Made by a program: the position numbers and the translations under genes. 64,000 nt of DNA from Candidatus Dependentiae bacterium UBA6230 (lineage in GTDB: Bacteria; Babelota; Babeliae; Babelales; Vermiphilaceae), in NCBI GenBank assembly GCA_002441565.1, contig DJWM01000002.1:31728-95727 (forward strand), in the 5' to 3' direction. Below, in pieces: positions 16,143 to 25,837 of the stretch (positions within the stretch are counted from its first letter, which is position 1; the number at the start of each line of letters is the position of its first letter). Below the pieces are notes generated by a model that did not search any database, had not been told where the DNA came from, and saw nothing but the letters and a program-made list of their open reading frames with translations.

Positions 16143-16838
16143 TTATTGATGATCAAGCAGATGTTCAAACGATCTTTTGATGTTACCCGAATATCGCCCA
16201 TCCAATAAGAGCATGTTAATGACAGCTTGGTAGTTTCTACGATGGGTCGCTAAATCGTTAAGAGGGTCTCGCCGCTCTTTGTTTTGAGATGCTTTATCTA
16301 GTGGAATTCTGCCTTTATGATCGCGAATATCAGATCGAGCACCATGCTTGAGTAAGAATTTGACTATTGATGGGCTGCATCTATCGAAACTTTCGCCTTT
16401 TGAGCAAGCATGGTGTAATGGTGTTTCTCCCTTATTATTCTGTAAGTCTATCAGCCATGGAGCATGGTCGAATAGGACTTCTGTTGTCTTGCCTCTTTCA
16501 AAGCACATAGCAGTCAAAAGTGGATTTTCACGGCAGGTTGACCATAACTTGGCGTGTTTTTTTACAAAATCGTTTTCAGGAATGCTGTCTAAATAGATCA
16601 TTTCGGAAATTATCTCGCAGGGTCTTTCACCATCTTGGGCTAAATCACGCTGAATACAGAGGGACCTAGAAAAAGGTTCACCGTAAAGAGGGTTAGAGCA
16701 AGAATATCGTTCATTCATTTCTAATCTAAAGCGGGGGCGGATGGTGCAGGACCAATTATTAGAAGAAGGGCCCTCCCAATAAGGACCTGAGGCAAGCTCG
16801 CCGCTATAAAGCGATTGCTGTATGCTCATTGAGCTCAT
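16143..16838 (-). CDS. ankyrin-repeat protein (no signal peptide)
   Basis: NKGETPLHHACSKGE...IVKFLLKHGARSDIRDHKGRIPLDKA are canonical ANK repeats. The N-terminal roughly 110 aa are unassigned. Confidence 0.8.
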   Translation of the reverse strand: MSSMSIQQSLYSGELASGPYWEGPSSNNWSCTIRPRFRLEMNERYSCSNPLYGEPFSRSLCIQRDLAQDGERPCEIISEMIYLDSIPENDFVKKHAKLWSTCRENPLLTAMCFERGKTTEVLFDHAPWLIDLQNNKGETPLHHACSKGESFDRCSPSIVKFLLKHGARSDIRDHKGRIPLDKASQNKERRDPLNDLATHRRNYQAVINMLLLDGRYSGNIKRSFEHLLDHQ

Positions 16839-17317
16839 GACAGTAAATTACCGCCAATAGGTATGGCGCACCGTTTTTTAACTTCATAATGACCTTATTG
16901 TTATTGATATTTGTTAATACAATTTTTCATTTAGTGCTATCAAGATAGGCGAAATTGATCCATTGTAAAGGACTTTTTATGCGAAAAAGTATGCGCTAAT
17001 ACTTGATTTTTTTTAGATCATCCTATGGCAACTTTTCTTTTTTTGTGCATTTCAGAGTTGAACCTAGGAAGGGTAACGGTAACAAAAGCGGCTAAAAAGA
17101 ACAATAGGTTGTTGACTAAGGTATAAATGATGGGTGGTTTAGTTGATGCCGATTCATACGTTGAAGAGAGTGTCTTTAATGCATGTTTCAGGAGGGTACG
17201 ACGAACAAAGAAAATTTCTATTTGAAATATTGACATCTGGAAGCTATTATCTTTATGCTGACTGATAGTGGAAAGTAGTAGTATATGACTTATTTTAGAT
17301 AGAGATGAGGAGTGGAC

Positions 17318-18514
17318 ATGTTATATTTTAAGCGATTTTTACGATTTAATTTTTTGTTAAGTTTCTGTTTTATCCTGGTGCAAACTTTGTGTTTAGCTCA
17401 GGATTCTGCATCGAGTGAAGCGTACTCAGATGTGGAGTATAGTGCAGCAATGGACTGGAGCGGAGGAGTAAGAGGAGTAAGATTTTTGGTAAAATCCATG
17501 GATGATGCGCTTGGTGCTGCTGGTAAGATAAATGAATTGAAGCCAGATATTCTGGAGATAGATTTAGACAGACAGCTTGCTGGTTCTGTGCAAGCTGTTG
17601 AGTGCATTCAAGCAATTATTGAAAATTTGTCTGTCGAAGCTAGAAACGCTATAGAAGTTTTGTCTCTGGTTGACAATGGTTTACCTGATCTTCCGGATGT
17701 GAGAGAGCTTGTCAATTTAGAAATTTTTGATGTAAGTGAAAATTCAATGATTTCTCTTGGAAACCTTGTTAGTAGAGTTCCGTCTAGATTAGAGGTTCTT
17801 TCTTTTCGAGAATGTAATTTAACGGTATTTCCTAATATTGTTGGGTTGAATAATTTAAAGATTATTCGTGCTTCTGAAAATCAATTTACGCAGTTACCCA
17901 ATATATCTCATCTTAGCGCACTTGAGGAGCTTGATTTAGGAGGAAGTAGGCTGAGTAGCCTGCCAAATTTGGATAATCTGATTAATTTAAAGGAACTAGA
18001 CTTATCTTCGAATGGATTGGCTACACCGCCGAATTTAAGTCGTTTGGTGCGCTTACAGCATTTGAATTTAAGTAATAATAATTTAACAGTGCCACCCGTT
18101 TTAACAGGATTGATTAACTTAAAAGATCTTGATTTAAGTGATAATTTGCTTACTAGTGCTCCGAATTTGGATGGATTGATCAATTTGCAGGAGCTTGATC
18201 TTGCTAATAACCAAATTGTTGTACCGCCATTTTTATCAGGGTTGTCAAACTTGAAGTCTATCTGGTTTACGAATAATCAGCTTACTCTTCCACCGAATTT
18301 AACTGGTTTATATAATTTACGGGTTTCTGAGGAAAATTTTAGTGGAAATCCATTCATGGCTGATCCTAATCTGAAGGGCCTGTTATTGGATCAGCTGAAC
18401 CAAATTGCGGAGGTTCAGCGAACCGGGGTTATTCCAATGATTCCTTCTACTTCTCGGGCCCCACAAAGAAGAGATGATGATGCCCCAGCACAGAAAAGAG
18501 CTCGATCAGAATAA
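17318..18514 (+). CDS. secreted leucine-rich-repeat protein (22-residue repeats) with a basic C-terminal tail
   Basis: GAGGAG lies 5 nt upstream of ATG 17318. It has a hydrophobic leader and 10 or more repeats of the form LxxLPNLxxLxNLxxLDLSxNx. The tail is APQRRDDDAPAQKRARSE. Confidence 0.85.
   Translation: MLYFKRFLRFNFLLSFCFILVQTLCLAQDSASSEAYSDVEYSAAMDWSGGVRGVRFLVKSMDDALGAAGKINELKPDILEIDLDRQLAGSVQAVECIQAIIENLSVEARNAIEVLSLVDNGLPDLPDVRELVNLEIFDVSENSMISLGNLVSRVPSRLEVLSFRECNLTVFPNIVGLNNLKIIRASENQFTQLPNISHLSALEELDLGGSRLSSLPNLDNLINLKELDLSSNGLATPPNLSRLVRLQHLNLSNNNLTVPPVLTGLINLKDLDLSDNLLTSAPNLDGLINLQELDLANNQIVVPPFLSGLSNLKSIWFTNNQLTLPPNLTGLYNLRVSEENFSGNPFMADPNLKGLLLDQLNQIAEVQRTGVIPMIPSTSRAPQRRDDDAPAQKRARSE
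17701..18330 (+). repeat. tandem imperfect 66-nt (22-codon) LRR-coding repeats
   Basis: Consecutive units include LSSLPNLDNLINLKELDLSSNG, LATPPNLSRLVRLQHLNLSNNN, LTVPPVLTGLINLKDLDLSDNL, LTSAPNLDGLINLQELDLANNQ and IVVPPFLSGLSNLKSIWFTNNQ. Confidence 0.8.
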
Positions 18515-18996
18515 AGGTGATAAAAAATAATATCGCGAGCGGTTTCAGAGATGAACTGCTCGCGATTAATATTCGCTCCACATGCGATGAGATGCTTTAT
18601 CATTTCATTTTAAACATTCTCCAGAATTAATCTGCTAAGAGGTTTTTTGATAATGTGATCAATGGCCCATATAGGGCCACTAAGCTCATCTATTGTGAGA
18701 TTGGTAGCCTTGTCTTTTATTTGATCGATATATGATGAAGCCATTACTTTACTGAGATATGTATTGAGGCGTCTATCGCCTTTCTTGGGTGCCTTTCCTT
18801 GTTTTACTATATTTGCTACTTGACCGATATCGATAGCGTCAATGGCGCGGAAAAAATCATCATGATTGTTGTGTGCTTCAATTGCAGGATTTTCTACGCA
18901 GTCATTTGTAAGCATGCCGTTTAAAAAACAGTTGCTTAATGTGATCATGGTTATTATAGCTGCGAATGCGATTCTTTTAATCTTATTGAAATGCAT
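18415..18996 (-). pseudogene. ankyrin-repeat gene interrupted by an in-frame TAA (18610-18612); the upstream part (18610-18996) alone encodes a 128-aa protein with a signal peptide
   Basis: The minus strand reads ...KKPLSRLILENV*NEMIKHLIACGANINREQFISETARDII... The stop therefore falls inside a single ANK repeat (helix-loop-GANIN). The two listed ORFs (18610-18996 and 18415-18603) are in the same frame. Confidence 0.5.
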
Positions 18997-19023
18997 ATAT
19001 TTTATTTCCTTAGTGTTTATAAG

Positions 19024-20559
19024 TTAATCAAAGAGTCCAAAACCTTTTGATCCAGCAGACAAGGGAGATGTAGGAGAGAGTTCTCCTGCATGACTCATCT
19101 CGTCTTGAACTTCTTGTATAAGTTGTGGAATGTTGAAACTTTCTAATAGATCCTTTTTTCCTGCACTTAATAAGCGAGCCACAACTATCTCTTTTTCTGG
19201 TTTTTTAAAACGAGAAAGATCGAGCTGCTTGCCTGTAGCCACCTCATCAGCATGTAGTGCTGCATCAATCGAACGCTGTAAGCGGTCGGTATGCAATTGT
19301 CTTTTCCATGAATATTTCTTGTATAGCGCGTGTTGATATTCGATAGAGGGGTTATCCGTTGGGATATGCTCGCTACATTTTGGGCAAGAAAGTGCATAGT
19401 TGGTACATAACGAACAAAGGAGCTCGTTACAACAAGTCATGCGTTTCATAAAATCGCCAGTTCGATGTTGTGAGCAGGTAGGGCACTGTTTAAGTGGTGT
19501 TAGGTCAGCATTATAGGACAAAAGATAGCGGATTCTTTCTAAGCAATTACTGTCATCAGCAGAATGCCAGTTGGTTAGACTATTATAGTCTATGATCCAC
19601 TGCTCGAGATCATGCAATGCCACCTCGAGTGGTGTGCATTTTGTATCATGAGTTCTTATATTAGGATTAGCACCATGGGCGAGTAGCATACGGCATGTTG
19701 TCGGATGAGTAGCGAAGTGCAATGGTGTGTTTCCCTCAGAATCGCAAAGATTAGGATTTGCTTGATGTTGTAACAGAAGATGCATAACGTCCAGGTGGTA
19801 CCCAGGCTCTGCCGACTTAGTTGCCCTTAATAAGGGAGAGCGGCCAGAACTATCGCGCTCGCCATTTATATCAGCGCCCTCAGAAATTGCGTTTTTTATG
19901 CCCGCAATATCCCCTTTTTTAACTGCAATATGTAGCATAAGAGTCGCTTTATATATTGGGCTCAGGAGTTCCATAAACTTTTGTTTTAATTCGCCAAATT
20001 CATCGCTTGATTCTATTTGTATAACTTTGTCGAATAAATTTTCTTCAGTCATTCTTGTTTTTTCATCATAGAAACGCTGCCAAAGAGGGAGGCCTGGACG
20101 ACTTGTGAACCAATTTCTCATTATTTCTACTTCAAGTGTACGGCGCGGAAGTTTCAAGTTGTCTACAATATCTTCCCTGCCGGCAGAAAGTAATCGCCAT
20201 ATAAAGAGCCATTGATGTACAGTATCTAGGTGATCAATACGCGGTTGTTCTTGCCCAGTTATGATTTGATCAGCATGGTGGGCGGTATCAAACATTGTTT
20301 TTAGGTACGTAATATCGAGTATTGAGTTACGATGTTCGTGTCCGAGCGGTTTATCTTGAAGGAATTTATTTGGATCTGCTCCGTATGCAAGGAGCATAAA
20401 TATCACATTTTCAACTTGATGCATGCTGCTAGTGAGTTTGTCATAAGTAGAAGGTAGAAAGTTATAGTATTCGTGGCCAAAACGGTTGCATATTCTTTCC
20501 CAAAAATATTTATCTTCAGGATCCTGCATAAGCGCATCAAAATCATCCTTTAGCGACAT
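19024..20559 (-). CDS. ankyrin-repeat protein with an 8-Cys RING-like zinc finger
   Basis: ANK repeats: LHIAVKKGDIAGIKNAISEGADINGERDSSGRSPLL..., GNTPLHFATHPTTCRMLLAHGANPN. Cys cluster: CPTC-x13-CC-x4-C-x2-C-x6-C-x2-C, encoded at 19375-19485. The start is uncertain (ATG 20559 or GTG 20607). Confidence 0.8.
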   Translation of the reverse strand: MSLKDDFDALMQDPEDKYFWERICNRFGHEYYNFLPSTYDKLTSSMHQVENVIFMLLAYGADPNKFLQDKPLGHEHRNSILDITYLKTMFDTAHHADQIITGQEQPRIDHLDTVHQWLFIWRLLSAGREDIVDNLKLPRRTLEVEIMRNWFTSRPGLPLWQRFYDEKTRMTEENLFDKVIQIESSDEFGELKQKFMELLSPIYKATLMLHIAVKKGDIAGIKNAISEGADINGERDSSGRSPLLRATKSAEPGYHLDVMHLLLQHQANPNLCDSEGNTPLHFATHPTTCRMLLAHGANPNIRTHDTKCTPLEVALHDLEQWIIDYNSLTNWHSADDSNCLERIRYLLSYNADLTPLKQCPTCSQHRTGDFMKRMTCCNELLCSLCTNYALSCPKCSEHIPTDNPSIEYQHALYKKYSWKRQLHTDRLQRSIDAALHADEVATGKQLDLSRFKKPEKEIVVARLLSAGKKDLLESFNIPQLIQEVQDEMSHAGELSPTSPLSAGSKGFGLFD

Positions 20560-21193
20560 AAGGGGGATGTTGCCAAATTTCTTCTTTTTTATCCGTAAGC
20601 TGTGCACTATAAGCGAGAAGTACCTGCATGACTTCTAAATTTTTGTTGCGCGTAGCTTGATAGAGAACAGTATCGCCGTCCATATTAAAAGTATAAGGAC
20701 GATTTGTAAGATGACGGGCAAGCAGCATGGTTACGATGTCTGAAGGCGTCCTTTTTACAGGGGGGATTATATCGGCACCATGTGCGAGAAGATAGCGGAT
20801 TGCAGCTAGATTATTTCTAGCTGTGTGAATGAGACCATCATCTACATCTCCTCCTGCCAAAACAAGACTGTCGAGTATTCGCAAATTGTTGGTACAGATG
20901 GCTTTTTTTAGTGGTTCGGCCAGATGGTATGCAACGCTTTTACCAAATAGTAGCCTCTCAGTATCCAAATAACGAACCTCGTTAAGAAGGTCTTCTATTT
21001 TTTTGATATCAATAACCGGTTTACAAATTTCACCACAAAGCTCATCAGATACTTGGACATCATCATTGAACCGTAAGGGGTAATGATCTTTTGCGGAGGT
21101 GCGGAGCATGCCGTGCAGAGAAGTAAAGGATGGCGGGAGAAGGAAGAATATACATAATAATGTTGTAATAGCACCTGTTGGCCAATGAGGCAT
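20543..21193 (-). CDS. ankyrin-repeat protein with a hydrophobic N-terminal leader
   Basis: AAAGGAG lies 6 nt upstream of ATG 21193. The leader is MPHWPTGAITTLLCIFFLLPPSF. ANK-like repeats include LDSLVLAGGDVDDGLIHTA..NLAAIRYLLAHGADI and GDTVLYQATRNKNLEVMQVLLAY. Confidence 0.75.
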   Translation of the reverse strand: MPHWPTGAITTLLCIFFLLPPSFTSLHGMLRTSAKDHYPLRFNDDVQVSDELCGEICKPVIDIKKIEDLLNEVRYLDTERLLFGKSVAYHLAEPLKKAICTNNLRILDSLVLAGGDVDDGLIHTARNNLAAIRYLLAHGADIIPPVKRTPSDIVTMLLARHLTNRPYTFNMDGDTVLYQATRNKNLEVMQVLLAYSAQLTDKKEEIWQHPPYVAKG

Positions 21194-21344
21194 GATTACT
21201 CCTTTTGTGATTAATGCCGTATCCATTGATTTGTTTGGTGAGCAGAATACTACATGTGCCTGATTAAGATAGGATTGTTCGCTGCAGACTACTTTCGGCG
21301 TTATTATATCTAAATTTCAGCAATTTTTAAAAACTCAACAGAAC

Positions 21345-21947
21345 CTAGCAACACCAATAATCGTCGCCATCACCATCATCAAGGCCGTGAGAGCGAGTAT
21401 TTCGTTCATTTTCGCCTTTGAGCACGCGTTCCAATTTCTTTAAATCTTCCCGCTGGTGACTTAGGGAGTCATATTCTTTGGCTTTATGTCGGATACTGTT
21501 ATATTGTTTTTCGTGACGAAACATGTAGGCCATCCATAGGTCGTTTTCAGGTGTTTTCAGATCATTTATGTTGCTCTGTGTGATATTCAGTTCATTCTGA
21601 ACACGGTCGAGCGGAGTTCTATCATTCCTATCTCTAATAGTCCTGTCAGCTCCCTGGTTAAGAAGTTCTCTAATCATTGACATAGTACTCCGCAATGACT
21701 CTATTTTCTCTATCGTTAATTCTTTCTCAGCTGCTATGCGACAATAACTTTCAACGGCGATATGCAGTGGGGTCAAGCGCTTAGCGTCTCGACGATTTAT
21801 ATTAGATTTTTCAAGCGCCGCATGAAGTTGTCCATGCTGATTATCCATGCAATTGGTCAGAAAGTAGTTGCTTAGTGAAAGAATGGCAATAACAACGGTG
21901 AGTTGGGTTGAAGCGATAGGGCTATGTTTTTGATGGGTAGAATGCAT
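21345..21947 (-). CDS. ankyrin-repeat / coiled-coil protein ending in -WCC
   Basis: AAAGGAA SD before ATG 21947. It has a hydrophobic leader and ANK repeats (RLTPLHIAV..., IRELLNQGADRTIRDRNDRTPLD). The C-terminus is acidic and ends DDGDGDDYWCC. Confidence 0.75.
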   Translation of the reverse strand: MHSTHQKHSPIASTQLTVVIAILSLSNYFLTNCMDNQHGQLHAALEKSNINRRDAKRLTPLHIAVESYCRIAAEKELTIEKIESLRSTMSMIRELLNQGADRTIRDRNDRTPLDRVQNELNITQSNINDLKTPENDLWMAYMFRHEKQYNSIRHKAKEYDSLSHQREDLKKLERVLKGENERNTRSHGLDDGDGDDYWCC

Positions 21948-22085
21948 AAGTTTCCTTTTTTCAGTATATGAATTTTTACCACAATTCGTCTGGTGAAAAA
22001 AGTTAGCATATCTACGTGGCTAATGAAAGCTAGATTAGCGGGCGATGATCCACATTTATTGAGTATTGAGTGCCGTATTTTGTGC

Positions 22086-23627
22086 TCATTTAATATTTGA
22101 CGCATGGATATAGGACAAGATATGACCTCCAAGTTCATTAGGTATGGATGTTTCCGGGCTTGGAAGAGCTTCAGTGTTTATAGTAGCATCTGGTTGCTTG
22201 GATATGCGCCATGTTTCTTGTATCCCGGAACATACTATACCCGCAAGTAACATATTGCCTATTTTTTTGAGTTTCCATTCTTTGGCAAAATAAAAAATTT
22301 TCGCGAGTACTGCGGGTTTTATGAGTGTAGTTGGTGAGTGTTTTCTTATTGAGGCTAATTCATCTCTATGGGAAAGGCTGAGTTTATTTGGTGCTATTTT
22401 TTCTAGATACACAAGTCCAAAAAGTCGAAATACTTGGGGATCGAAGTGGTATGCAGGAGACCCAAGAATAGTTATAAGCAAAGTATGAGCAGATTCTTCG
22501 CTGTCTTTTTTGATATCGACAAAGGTAGGGGAAAAAAGACTACGTGGTAATTTTTGTTGATGGTGAAGAAGAGAGAGCAGCTCACGGCGTTGATCATGAT
22601 CGATTGATTGAATAATGGTTTCAAGGAGTGAAGAAGAAATTTCTTCACGTGGATATTTCCGCAAATATTCTATGCCATAGCGATGCTTTTTGGGTTTTTT
22701 GCTTGATACTAGATGTCTTGCAACAAGTGGCTCGCATATTGATTGTCGCTCAAATGAAGAAACTATCTTGCGATAAACAAGCCGATCAAGAGTATCCAGA
22801 TGTTCATTTAGGAGCAGCCGCCCAATAAGGACCTCAGTTTGTGCACGAGAGAAAAATGTTGGGCTGATAGTAGAGTTGTCTTGTGTTGCATGATCTGCAA
22901 GCAGGGCAGTGTCGAGCAGCATTTGTATAGGTTGCCCCAATTGCTTACTGCTTGATTGATCAGCTGATATTTTTGACGTTAGTTGATCGATGCATTGTGA
23001 GCATGTTGCGGCGTTATTATTAATGATGCAGTGCTTGCACATAGTACCGCAGCATGGCGTTTGTTTCACAAAATGCGGAGATTTGGCTTGTGAGCAACAA
23101 GCGCATTGTACTAATGGTGCGCCATGAATAAGAAGAAGTTTTGTTGTAGCAAGAACTTTTTCAGAATCTACGGCGGTAGTATCTTCTTGACACAATGCTA
23201 TATCAAGAGGAGTTCTCTCAATTATATCCTTTAGCCCTGTATTGGCGCCGTAGTGTAACAGTGTTTCAATCAACATGGAATTTCTTATCATTGCTGCGTT
23301 ATGCAGAGCGGTTTTTCCAGATATTATATCCTGAACTTCTACGTTTGCTTCACGTTGCATAAAAAATTTAACGATTTCATTGCTCGTCATGGTTGATCCT
23401 GTGACCTTGATAGCGTTCATTAGTGCGTATGATGGATCAGCGTCATTTGTCTGAGCAGATGTTGTCAGTAATGGTTCTGTTGGATATGCCGGGAATATTG
23501 TAGATGTTGCCAGTATTAGGAGAATACTGTTAAAGAATAAGCACATAAGGCTTTTGTAGTATGTCATGTTATTATATTTTTTGTCCTGATTATATGTCTG
23601 ATGCAGTGGTAATAGAAATGCGCTCAT
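22086..23627 (-). CDS. ankyrin-repeat protein with an 8-Cys RING-like zinc finger (paralog of 19024-20559)
   Basis: ANK repeats: GKTALHNAAMIRNSMLIETLLHYGANTGLKDIIERTPLDIAL. Cys cluster: CACC-x13-CC-x3-C-x2-C-x8-C-x2-C, encoded at 22992-23105. It has a hydrophobic leader (MTYYKSLMCLFFNSILLILATS; the start could be 23567). The C-terminal roughly 280 aa are unassigned. Confidence 0.8.
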   Translation of the reverse strand: MSAFLLPLHQTYNQDKKYNNMTYYKSLMCLFFNSILLILATSTIFPAYPTEPLLTTSAQTNDADPSYALMNAIKVTGSTMTSNEIVKFFMQREANVEVQDIISGKTALHNAAMIRNSMLIETLLHYGANTGLKDIIERTPLDIALCQEDTTAVDSEKVLATTKLLLIHGAPLVQCACCSQAKSPHFVKQTPCCGTMCKHCIINNNAATCSQCIDQLTSKISADQSSSKQLGQPIQMLLDTALLADHATQDNSTISPTFFSRAQTEVLIGRLLLNEHLDTLDRLVYRKIVSSFERQSICEPLVARHLVSSKKPKKHRYGIEYLRKYPREEISSSLLETIIQSIDHDQRRELLSLLHHQQKLPRSLFSPTFVDIKKDSEESAHTLLITILGSPAYHFDPQVFRLFGLVYLEKIAPNKLSLSHRDELASIRKHSPTTLIKPAVLAKIFYFAKEWKLKKIGNMLLAGIVCSGIQETWRISKQPDATINTEALPSPETSIPNELGGHILSYIHASNIK

Positions 23628-23703: not shown

Positions 23704-24567
23704 TTATTGCTGAGTGATATCGATTTGGTGATCAATAATTCTTATAGTCACATCTTTTTCGGATGGCTTAAGTTGTTCCAAGTTATTAATGATAGAAGGA
23801 AGTGCTGCAACAAATGTTTCGAGCATAAATTCAACATGTAAAATACCGCGACCGTGCATAGTGACGAGAGCTTGGATTAGTTTTGAGGAAGGGTTAAAAT
23901 GGCGTGCAGAAAAAAGTGGCTCTTGTTCTATCGAGTGAAAAAGATTTTTAAGTTGCTGAATTGACCGTATAGAAAAAACTCCACCGAGTGCTTTTTTTAG
24001 CCCAGGAAGGCCTTGTGGGTCAGCGATTTGTACCATGTCCCAATGAGAGTGTAGAGAATAAATTTTTTTAAAAAGTTGATTTTTAATGAGCGAAGCGGTT
24101 GATTTTTGTACCGGACAGGCAAGCAGCACCAGCTCATCAATACCACATGAAAGAAAGCTTGATGTATCGCTATCAGCCAAGTGAAGCGCCACATTGCCGC
24201 CGTGGCTATGGGTTATGATGCGAATAAATGGCTTCTGTTGATAAGTGCCTTCATATTGATCTATTAATTGTTTGAGCGCTTTGTGTAGTTTTTGCGCAGC
24301 TTTTATTCTTTCATCCTCACTTAACATTCCTGACCAACCAAATAGATAGAGCGTTTCCCAGGGAAACATAGTTGGTGCATGTTGATGTAATATGGTTGCA
24401 AGGTGATGGTGATGAAAAGAAGGATCTAGTGTTTGAGCAAGATGAAGACCTGGCTCGCAGTGCATAAAGCGGTGAAGTTTTTCTATGTGGATATGTGATA
24501 GCGGGGTAGGTAGGATGTGCTGCGGTTTGGTTCCATGAATCCATATGGTGATAGGTGGCGTGATCAT
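23704..24567 (-). CDS. alpha/beta-hydrolase, lipase/esterase-like
   Basis: ITIWIHGT looks like an oxyanion-region strand. IITHSHGGNVAL is a GxSxG-type nucleophile elbow (T-H-S-H-G-G). Later Asp and His candidates are present (HSHWDMV). The family is not pinned down. Confidence 0.55.
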   Translation of the reverse strand: MITPPITIWIHGTKPQHILPTPLSHIHIEKLHRFMHCEPGLHLAQTLDPSFHHHHLATILHQHAPTMFPWETLYLFGWSGMLSEDERIKAAQKLHKALKQLIDQYEGTYQQKPFIRIITHSHGGNVALHLADSDTSSFLSCGIDELVLLACPVQKSTASLIKNQLFKKIYSLHSHWDMVQIADPQGLPGLKKALGGVFSIRSIQQLKNLFHSIEQEPLFSARHFNPSSKLIQALVTMHGRGILHVEFMLETFVAALPSIINNLEQLKPSEKDVTIRIIDHQIDITQQ

Positions 24568-24741
24568 CGTGTATTCCTCCCCATGAATGATACTTATGTT
24601 AATACTACAACTTTTGCCTTATGTGGCCAAGAGGATTGGCGTAGGATAATGGGCGTTTCATTGCAAGAAACACTTGTTACCTTATACTTTAAGCACCAAT
24701 TTAATTATGAGGCTTTGTATTGTTTATAAACAGGGATAATT

Positions 24742-25833
24742 ATGCGTATTTTAAGAGGCATGAATAGTCTAGTTGTACAATGTATAATGCTGAACATTAT
24801 GGTGTCATGTGATGCCATGATTTTGCACAACCAACTATCGTCTGATGTGTCGCATGGATCATTACGAGATGCTATTATCAATGATCCATGGAGCGTTTAT
24901 GATCAGTGTTCTGCATTGAAAACAAAATTTTTACGTGAGTTGCATGAGCAACATATTTTTGATCATAAACATATGAGTCCATCGCAGGCAGTACAAACAT
25001 TCGAGGAGATGTGTCGAATGTTTGAAGCAGAAAATCCCATCTTTTTGCTTGGTGAGTCTGATGCGGAAGCGAAGAATTATGGAGTCGATATGAAGACATC
25101 TGTAGTTCAAGAAGCGCAAAAAAAATATGAAGATCTCATTACCGGTGCAACAATGAAAGCTAATCTACAACAAGGATCAGTGGTATATACCAATTTTGGT
25201 GCGAGAAAATACTTTTCTGATCTAAGAGCGTTATCGAAAATGCTGGTATGTTTCCCCTTATCAGTACTTGCTATTCATAGTGTAGGCGATTTAGATAGAT
25301 GTAGTACAAAATATAAGGATATGAAGTTCGGTTCACGGGAAGTCTTTTCGCATGAAGTATGGTATGAATTAAGTGATGATTTAGCTCCTGAGCTAAGATC
25401 GGAAATAGTTGATGAAGTAACTCAATACTTTGATCCACATATACTTGATGATTATGTACGAGAAGATGTTCTTTTGAGATTGGCACAAAAAAAGCAAATG
25501 ATACGTTGGCTTCGTAATGAATTTCCTCATGCAACTACCAGTCTTTTCATTCACCATAACATTGAAAGTTACCTGTGCTATCTAGCTGGTCACGGGATGA
25601 TGTTGCCTAATGTATTAGTGTCTTCGGATTCTTATGATAATGGGATTGATCAGATGTCTAAACATTACAAATTATTAGCCCTCATAACGTTGCTGTATAA
25701 TAAAGATGCATCCAATTTATTGCTTCATTATGAACATAATAGGCCCATGGTTGCTTCGTATTCAATAGAATCTGCTGGAATCAATGTAGTACAAGAGCCA
25801 ATCATGCGATTAAATCAAATCCCCTTGAGTTAA
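24742..25833 (+). CDS. hypothetical protein with a hydrophobic N-terminus
   Basis: A long ORF (363 aa) with no competing frame. No motif recognised. Confidence 0.5.
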   Translation: MRILRGMNSLVVQCIMLNIMVSCDAMILHNQLSSDVSHGSLRDAIINDPWSVYDQCSALKTKFLRELHEQHIFDHKHMSPSQAVQTFEEMCRMFEAENPIFLLGESDAEAKNYGVDMKTSVVQEAQKKYEDLITGATMKANLQQGSVVYTNFGARKYFSDLRALSKMLVCFPLSVLAIHSVGDLDRCSTKYKDMKFGSREVFSHEVWYELSDDLAPELRSEIVDEVTQYFDPHILDDYVREDVLLRLAQKKQMIRWLRNEFPHATTSLFIHHNIESYLCYLAGHGMMLPNVLVSSDSYDNGIDQMSKHYKLLALITLLYNKDASNLLLHYEHNRPMVASYSIESAGINVVQEPIMRLNQIPLS

Positions 25834-25837
25834 TGAT

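Follow-up and report, generated by a model that had tools for sequence, protein, structure and literature searches.

A candidate all-cysteine RING-type finger fused to ankyrin repeats in two paralogous proteins of a Candidatus Dependentiae bacterium

A 64,000 bp stretch of the genome of Candidatus Dependentiae bacterium UBA6230 (the whole stretch is referred to here as the window) contains two paralogous genes, A and B, each predicted to encode ankyrin (ANK) repeats followed immediately by a domain with eight cysteines. Judged by sequence and profile comparison, the closest relatives of this domain appear to be RING fingers, specifically those of the all-cysteine (C4C4) kind, and we consider its membership of the RING superfamily of zinc fingers probable. 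What appears to be new is a strongly diverged all-Cys RING that is missed by standard annotation, has an adjacent cysteine pair (CC) like that of RBBP6 and is fused to ANK repeats in proteins predicted to bear signal peptides. The Dependentiae (TM6) are a phylum of obligate parasites of protists. The explanation we put forward, tentatively, is that A and B represent a Dependentiae ankyrin family with a divergent C4C4 RING-type finger and that B may act as a host-directed E3 mimic.

Both genes lie on the minus strand. Open reading frame (ORF) A (19024..20559) encodes 511 amino acids (aa) from its ATG, with a GTG-extended reading up to 20607, and ORF B (22086..23627) encodes 513 aa. The preliminary description of this DNA had the coordinates of both ORFs right; to these can be added their strand and the finding that a frameshift has split the gene of which A forms the downstream portion. 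Protein A consists, in order, of a helical module, ANK repeats, the Cys (RING-like) domain and a second helical module, and it has no N-terminal signal peptide. Protein B starts with a signal-peptide-like segment, which is followed by ANK repeats, the Cys domain, a helical module and a C-terminal region of about 230 aa. Ankyrin repeats are the only feature of either protein that Pfam recognizes above threshold, with Ank_2 scores of 57.9 bits (A) and 44.3 bits (B). They occupy 19501..19941 (-) in A (aa 207-304 by Pfam, plus a degenerate terminal repeat that ends in LLSYNADL, 5 residues ahead of the first Cys) and 23112..23384 (-) in B. The Cys domain is located at 19375..19485 (-) in A (CPTC-x13-CC-x4-CSLC-x6-CPKC, aa 359-395) and at 22992..23105 (-) in B (CACC-x13-CC-x3-CKHC-x8-CSQC, aa 175-212); a six-frame regular-expression scan returned exactly these positions, which had already been given in the preliminary description. 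The same description placed the cluster right after the ANK repeats, and in both proteins just 4-5 residues separate the last ankyrin helix from the first Cys (LLSYNADLTPLKQC in A, LLLIHGAPLVQC in B). The 13-residue first loop of the cluster, SQHRTGDFMKRMT in A and SQAKSPHFVKQTP in B, begins with SQ and contains F[MV]K, as had also been pointed out. The RING-like finger thus described appears to be fused to the last ankyrin repeat in a fixed register.

The helical module is specific to the family and about 50 aa long, follows the pattern D-A-A-L-x-A-D-x-V ... R-L-L-x-x-x-x-x-D-L-L and has no match in Pfam or in PDB. One copy follows the Cys domain of A (19135..19284 (-), IDAALHADEV...ARLLSAGKKDLLESF), a second is present in A at 20155-20304 (-) (FDTAHHADQI...WRLLSAGREDIVDNL), and B carries one at 22779..22931 (-) (LLDTALLADHA...GRLLLNEHLDTLDRL). 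In several paralogs the module sits after the ankyrin stack, with or without a Cys domain in between, and it is also found around positions 7350-7620 of L003, a locus of Candidatus Dependentiae bacterium GCA_023382795.1 that shares synteny and 73-95% nucleotide identity with the window. By BLASTP, A and B are 26% identical (E=2e-12) over a region that spans the ANK repeats, the Cys domain and the following helical module, where they share the pattern D-A/T-A-L-x-A-D ... R-L-L; this bears out their proposed paralogy. The hydrophobic N-terminal segment of B (23481..23567 (-), MTYYKSLMCLFFNSILLILATSTIFPAYP) is probably a signal peptide of the Sec type or a signal anchor. Among named relatives, the one closest to B is the 84% identical protein P0123 of GCA_023382795.1, whose sole annotation is 'ankyrin repeat domain-containing protein'. 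Because this ortholog begins at the position that corresponds to M21 of B, right behind which the signal-peptide-like segment follows, the true start of B is probably M21 at 23567, which would put the annotated start 20 codons too far upstream.

The six-frame scan found exactly two RING-like Cys patterns in the window, those of A and B, and the motif count in 200 shuffles of the window was 0. Eight of the 13 cysteines of A and nine of the 13 of B fall inside the 37-38-residue cluster. In an alignment of four sequences (A, B, P0123 and P0122; pairwise identity 21-84%), all eight cysteines are invariant and account for eight of the 11 invariant columns; all eight are likewise kept in the strain variants of A and of B. 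P0122, a 429-aa protein, is only 35% identical to B and retains the eight cysteines as CSHC-x13-CC-x4-CKHC-x11-CPYC. It lacks ANK repeats, of which a vestige of the last helix remains. B is preceded by a PGAP1-like hydrolase gene, and a homolog of this hydrolase gene lies upstream of the gene for P0122, which makes P0122, a protein of a more distant relative, a positional ortholog of B. Between B and P0123, the ratio of nonsynonymous to synonymous substitution rates (dN/dS) is 0.31 for the whole gene, 0.50 for the N-terminus and ANK repeats, and 0.11 for the Cys domain. The number of ankyrin repeats changes from ortholog to ortholog (none in P0122, about two or three in B and about three more than that in P0123, reflecting a 92-aa indel), and the parts that stay constant are the Cys domain and, behind it, the helical module and C-terminal region. 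Together, the invariant cysteines, the low dN/dS of the Cys domain and the variable number of repeats indicate that the cluster is a constrained domain and not a chance enrichment in cysteine. The preliminary description had argued for homology from the shared features of the first loop, and the conservation of the pattern in P0123 and P0122 supports it.

The family is very small. A HMMER profile built from the Cys and helical regions of A and B was searched exhaustively against 1.84 billion sequences, which stand for some 15 billion proteins at one representative per 50% cluster, and retrieved only three clusters: that of A, that of B and P0122 (E=1e-11). A scan of GTDB genomes with the A3 alignment produced 31 pattern matches, none of which was confirmed. 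Full-length homology search with A yielded mostly generic ankyrin matches, the informative ones being its own cluster and the protein P0002. On this evidence A and B appear to form a lineage-specific family confined to one small Dependentiae clade.

Several lines of comparison point to a RING. The ligand spacing was compared with the general RING formula C-x2-C-x(9-39)-C-x(1-3)-H/C-x(2-3)-C-x2-C-x(4-48)-C-x2-C, and all four sequences agree with it apart from one point, the direct adjacency of ligands 3 and 4 (CC, x0). The accepted RING of RBBP6 departs from the formula in the same way (PMC1360078). The distance from Cys3 to Cys5 is 4-5 residues, as in C3HC4 RINGs, and with eight invariant cysteines, and with His absent from ligand position 4 and its vicinity, the domain corresponds to the C4C4 subtype, which includes CNOT4, RBBP6 and TFIIH p44. 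When a profile of three of the domains was searched against PDB sequences, 28 of the 29 matches at E<=10 were RINGs with the cysteines in register. The best was RNF125 (E=0.0034), followed by MAT1, RNF126, TRAF6, BRCA1 and RNF4, with RLIM, RAD18, RBBP6, RNF8 and TRIM32 among the others. The P0122 domain alone gave 46 PDB matches, 44 of them RING or RING-type, and its best match was the RING of RBBP6 (2YUR/3ZTG; E=0.003), with ITPCCQKSICKHCIATALNE aligned to VIPCCGNSYCDECIRTALLE. The RINGs of MAT1 and Tfb3 rank among the best PDB matches. In two controls in which the cysteines were held fixed and all other residues were shuffled, the PDB search returned no RING matches, so the signal does not come from Cys spacing alone. 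In hhalign comparisons the domain aligned with the RINGs of RBBP6, CNOT4 and c-Cbl at probabilities of 87%, 45% (all eight cysteines in register) and 15%, respectively, and with a PHD finger and rubredoxin, the controls, at 1.7% and 0.8%; the comparison sequences are approximate, with that of RBBP6 alone partly verified through its PDB match. Nearly all Pfam matches to the isolated domains are to RING families, each of them below its gathering score. The best E-values are 1.1e-3 for zf-C3HC4_3 and 1.4e-3 for zf-RING_2, and zf-RING_5, zf-C3HC4, zf-C3HC4_2 and zf-C3HC4_5 are also matched below threshold. The profile searches favor a RING over a non-RING fold, in Pfam at sub-threshold scores. The earlier proposal of an all-Cys C4C4 finger resembling that of CNOT4 is sustained, with RBBP6 emerging as the better match.

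The resemblance to the RING of RBBP6/Mpe1 (2YUR, 3ZTG) lies in the all-Cys ligand set and in the adjacent CC at ligands 3 and 4. The RBBP6 consensus C-X2-C-X11-C-C-X-[NS]-X2-C-X2-C-X12-C-X2-C, described as 'C4C4 or C3NC4' (PMC1360078), compares with C-x2-C-x13-CC-x3/4-C-x2-C-x6-11-C-x2-C in the A/B family, and the stretch 'PCC...C..CI.TAL' is common to both. There are also clear differences. RBBP6 has an Ile before Cys2 (CLIC) and a U-box-like hydrophobic set, whereas the A/B family has T, C, C or H at that position; and RBBP6 combines its RING with one DWNN domain plus a zinc knuckle and has no ankyrin repeats. The likeness is limited to about 35 residues and is statistically not strong. The CNOT4 RING, spaced C-x2-C-x13-C-x-C-x4-C-x2-C-x11-C-x2-C, is likewise an all-Cys, two-zinc finger with almost the same spacing as the A/B domain, for which zinc is predicted. 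It differs in having CxC in place of CC, and the corresponding Pfam family, zf-RING_4, matches only at E of about 0.6-1. CNOT4 further has a Leu before Cys2 and an Arg after Cys8, both of which are absent from the A/B family.

If the finger is a RING, a sequence of events can be proposed for B. The protein would be exported by means of its N-terminal signal sequence, typical of Dependentiae ankyrin proteins, a step that the data partly bear out, and would then arrive in the cytosol of the protist host. There the ankyrin stack and the conserved C-terminal region would bind one or more host proteins. The eight cysteines would hold two zinc ions in a cross-brace, for which there is again partial support, and the finger would dock the protein onto the host ubiquitin machinery, most likely by recruiting E2~ubiquitin, making it an E3 ligase mimic directed at the host. 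B (counted from Met21), P0122, P0123 and the 227-aa ORF upstream of A all have a hydrophobic segment at the N-terminus (KD15 > 1.9), compared with a value of 0.91 for A from its ATG, and the neighboring 200-aa and 128-aa ORFs also have strongly hydrophobic N-termini. In Chromulinavorax, 78% of 98 ankyrin proteins have signal peptides, and the Sec system is the proposed export route (PMC6561590). A host-directed role would therefore fit both the Dependentiae origin and the signal peptides of ankyrin proteins; the earlier suggestion of such a role gains from this context and from the N-terminus of B, but it does not extend readily to A, which has no signal peptide. A more specific version, in which B-type proteins are zinc-dependent all-Cys RING E3s that are exported by Sec into the protist cytosol, use a non-canonical E2 interface and carry a RING possibly derived from host RBBP6/Mpe1, strikes us as unlikely in its entirety.

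A number of observations count against this explanation. No RING model reaches its Pfam gathering score, the best scoring about 19-20 bits against cut-offs of 21-31, and the best PDB E-values are just about 3e-3. AlphaFold gave a mean predicted local distance difference test (pLDDT) score of 44.3 for full-length A as a single sequence and 49.6 for the 75-aa domain with the four-sequence alignment, and Foldseek found no match to these models in PDB at E<3; the structure prediction that was to reveal a cross-brace thus failed to do so. In the low-confidence model, a beta-hairpin flanks the CC pair on both sides, as in RINGs. Given the low AlphaFold confidence and the sub-threshold Pfam scores, the cross-brace fold is a putative one. 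The earlier proposal of a RING-like finger finds its support in the profile and PDB matches, almost all of which are RINGs. The features expected for E2 binding are largely absent. In active RING and U-box domains, E2 docks on a hydrophobic surface made up of an Ile/Leu in loop 1, a Leu/Trp in the helix and a Pro in loop 2 (PMC5819833). In the four-sequence alignment this triad is at best partial in any member. The residue before Cys2 is T in A, C in B, C in P0123 and H in P0122, so none of the four has Ile, Leu or Val there; the residue after Cys6 is T in A and I in B, P0123 and P0122; and the residue after Cys7 is P in A, S in B, Q in P0123 and P in P0122, leaving Pro in A and P0122 only. 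A basic 'linchpin' residue after Cys8 activates E2~Ub, as seen in the RNF4 and BIRC7 structures, and at this position A, B, P0123 and P0122 have S, I, A and T, that is, no Arg or Lys in any of the four. Because many active RINGs lack the linchpin, its absence weakens the E3 claim and does not exclude it. Moreover, the RINGs of MAT1 and Tfb3, which are among the best matches, are structural and not known to act as ligases. In favor of activity, RBBP6 and CNOT4 have both been described as E3 ligases (PMC1360078), and RavN, a very divergent bacterial U-box, is still active (PMC5819833). On balance we regard it as doubtful, though a serious possibility, that the Cys finger is an active E3. A further difficulty is that the passage of a protein from Sec export into the host cytosol would be left unexplained.

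The state of gene A adds to these difficulties. Immediately upstream of it lies a 227-aa ORF (20543..21226 (-)) with a signal-peptide-like N-terminus and ANK repeats, which represents the upstream part of an ancestral gene extending into A. Both L003 and P0002 have the homolog of this ORF in a single frame with the N-terminal half of A. Relative to L003, the window has 4 extra nucleotides at about 20590-20605, within an A/G-rich tract at the junction (20585..20607 (-), GATAAAAAAGAAGAAATTTGG), and these divide the ancestral gene, which encoded a signal peptide, ANK repeats and a helical module (plus ANK and RING), between two ORFs that overlap. L004, an independent sample (SRR19748630) that is 98% identical over 12.5 kb, has exactly the same junction, so the split does not stem from faulty assembly. 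A second split, into parts of 169 and 342 aa (P0125/P0126), affects A in another strain. The 342-aa part, comprising the second set of ANK repeats (ANK2), the Cys domain and the helical module, is open in all variants seen. This half of A (19011-19972 in the window) has no counterpart in the syntenic part of L003 (6223-6259), where the homologous gene (423 aa) ends just before it. As a fission product without a signal peptide, A is doubtful as a protein delivered to the host. A looks like a gene in flux, and B the better candidate for a working protein.

Three other explanations have to be weighed. The domain may not be a RING at all, being instead some other small metal-binding fold (two CxxC knuckles or a zinc ribbon, for instance) or a disulfide-stabilized knot that functions outside the cytoplasm. 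The lack of a confident predicted fold and of any Pfam match above threshold would agree with this, as would the short partial match of P0123 to DUF5522 (E=6.5e-4) and the signal-peptide-like N-termini of B and its orthologs, which would take the domain across an oxidizing compartment. We nevertheless consider it improbable. The PDB matches are overwhelmingly RINGs with the cysteines in register (28 of 29 and 44 of 46) and vanish when the non-Cys residues are shuffled; in hhalign the two controls, a PHD finger and rubredoxin, come out negative; ankyrin repeats are modules of the cytosol; and the spacing agrees with the published RBBP6 consensus (PMC1360078). A less distant alternative keeps the RING fold with its two zinc ions and gives it no ligase activity. 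The finger would then be a rigid structural or protein-interaction module, like the MAT1/Tfb3 RING of TFIIH, and might close off the ankyrin stack, hold the helical module in place or contact a host partner that has nothing to do with E2. The ranking of the MAT1 and Tfb3 RINGs among the best matches argues for it, as does the absence of the canonical E2-contact residues from all four sequences when they are judged by the published criteria (PMC5819833). In addition, ANK repeats are joined straight to the helical module, with no Cys domain, at the first module of A and in a 469-aa protein of L003, so the finger looks like an optional insert in the linker. This is the main rival of the E3 reading; we find it unlikely, but less improbable than a non-RING fold. 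The best single match, RBBP6, is described as an E3 ligase, as is CNOT4 (PMC1360078), some members keep the Pro after Cys7 and the Ile after Cys6, and divergent bacterial U-boxes such as RavN stay active (PMC5819833).

It is also conceivable that the genes, A above all, are decaying remnants of an ankyrin family that expands and contracts, and that the Cys domain no longer has a function. The history of A is what such decay would look like: the 4-nt frameshift that parts it from its signal-peptide-bearing N-terminal portion, present in an independent sample as well; the further split in another strain; and the lack of a counterpart to its ANK2, Cys and helical half in the syntenic locus of GCA_023382795.1. 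ANK genes nearby are visibly degraded, and the codon changes between the window and L004 are three nonsynonymous to one synonymous in A and four to one in B. However, B is under purifying selection that is strongest in the Cys domain (omega 0.11), its positional ortholog keeps all eight cysteines at 35% identity, and the 342-codon ANK2, Cys and helical part of A is open in every variant seen. Of all the explanations, decay is the one to which we give the least credence. The divergent RING-type finger with a possible host-directed E3 role in B is thus the reading that we retain, in the tentative form given at the outset.

We know of no characterized zinc-binding bacterial RING-type E3 mimic. 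The preliminary description presented the fusion of ANK repeats and a RING in a bacterium as an unusual effector architecture, and this was overstated, as RING proteins have been predicted in Babela and Neochlamydia (PMC4378268, PMC4209131) and the combination of ANK and RING is a common E3 architecture in eukaryotes, found for example in the plant XB3-like family (PMC3596331). The plant XB3/XBAT proteins and Mind bomb resemble A and B in having target-binding ankyrin repeats with a RING on their C-terminal side. The C3-to-C5 and C6-to-C7 spacings of A would suit zf-C3HC4_3, the type used by XB3/XBAT and Mind bomb; this family is also the best sub-threshold Pfam match in the scan of three domains, whose output does not state which member gave the match. 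The eukaryotic RINGs differ in being C3HC4, with His at ligand 4, and in being recognized by Pfam at full score. The exhaustive search, with its three clusters, revealed no significant sequence relationship between the A/B family and the eukaryotic ANK and RING E3s, and the family is further set apart by its putative bacterial signal peptides and its unrelated helical and C-terminal regions.

Among bacteria that live in protists, a RING finger protein has been predicted in Babela massiliensis, a member of the same phylum (PMC4378268), and the NEX1b family of Neochlamydia is predicted to join a RING/U-box to leucine-rich repeats (LRR) (PMC4209131). These are predictions only, but they share with A and B the placement of putative eukaryote-like ubiquitin-ligase domains on repeat domains in bacteria with an obligate intracellular life as parasites or symbionts of protists. 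They were found by standard profiles, which miss the A/B family, and in NEX1b the domain is paired with LRR at the N-terminus. The literature classes LubX, GobX and AvrPtoB as U-box ligases; RavN has a U-box-like fold that is stated to lack Zn-coordinating sites and keeps the Ile/Leu/Pro E2-binding triad (PMC5819833). If the A/B family is active, it would resemble NleG, LubX, GobX, RavN and AvrPtoB in acting as a scaffold for E2~Ub with no covalent intermediate (PMC5819833). RavN and the A/B family are opposites in one respect: the former keeps the triad without zinc sites, and the latter keeps eight Cys ligands, with zinc predicted, without the triad.

The C-terminal region of B has no PDB match and no Pfam match at E<=10. 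It contains a conserved motif, [LI]P.E[LI]...I[LI].YI, present as IPNELGGHILSYI in B (22089-22145 (-)) and as LPLEIIESIIEYI in P0122. An F-box/PRANC identity for this motif was considered and is not supported, since the resemblance is to the first helix only and the C-terminal segments have no Pfam match at E<=10. Weak Pfam matches to COMMD9_HN, DUF5522, Hormone_5 and DUF7837 were taken as partial similarities due to chance.

Around A and B, ANK and LRR genes are clustered (16.1-24.6 kb), and this cluster changes fast between strains. The housekeeping genes of the window include those for transketolase, leuS, uvrB, rpoD, dnaG and mnmG. Downstream of A, a 128-aa ORF (18610-18996) and a 62-aa ORF (18415-18603), both on the minus strand, are remnants of the gene for a 469-aa protein with a signal peptide, ANK repeats and a helical module, which is intact in L003 (6244-7653). 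The rest of the space of this gene in the window is taken up by an LRR-repeat gene on the opposite strand (17312-18514 (+)) and a 231-aa ANK gene (16143-16838). Between A and B lies a 200-aa ORF (21345-21947 (-)), whose protein is identical in the window and L003. It has weak ANK similarity and closes with an acidic stretch and a pair of cysteines (...LDDGDGDDYWCC*); that this C-terminal CC might be a host lipidation site is speculative. The last 113 codons of B (22086-22430) are nearly identical to L003 DNA, with a synonymous divergence (dS) of 0.013. Identity to L003 is about 90% over the stretch made up of 22086-22430 and 21345-21947 and 73-78% in its flanks, a mosaic pattern that suggests recent recombination, gene conversion between lineages or a chimeric metagenome-assembled genome.

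On the other side of B, the ANK cluster is adjoined by a gene for a PGAP1-like alpha/beta hydrolase (23704-24567), and the order of this gene and the B-type gene is conserved in three genomes. It is followed by genes for two further proteins, one of 363 aa (24742-25833) that matches nothing and one of 387 aa (25838-27001) whose Pfam matches are insignificant and whose precomputed annotations are PI-PLC X-like (faint) and Rv2075c_cat. The genes at 23704-27001 are possibly lipid-directed host-interaction genes. No tRNA and no Rfam family was found in the 64 kb, and a promoter and terminator scan of the locus performed no better than on shuffles. GC skew is positive over nearly the whole window (about +0.06 to +0.21), despite genes on both strands; two 2-kb bins are slightly negative, and the cumulative skew climbs to 3.8 with only two slight dips.

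The impact of these findings is limited by the tiny size of the family (three clusters among 1.84 billion sequences), by the prior predictions in Babela and Neochlamydia and by the weak E2-binding signature. Even so, the Dependentiae are widespread and almost uncultured, and encode hundreds of secreted ankyrin proteins with no assigned activities. Standard domain annotation overlooks modules of this kind and labels the proteins as ankyrin only. If the proposed explanation is true, a zinc RING on an ankyrin stack would give one such family a concrete biochemical activity, namely host ubiquitination. B-type proteins would then become the first characterized bacterial effector family with a zinc RING as opposed to a U-box, and the list of bacterial RING-type mimics, so far of the U-box type (PMC5819833), would gain a zinc RING with an unusual CC pair.

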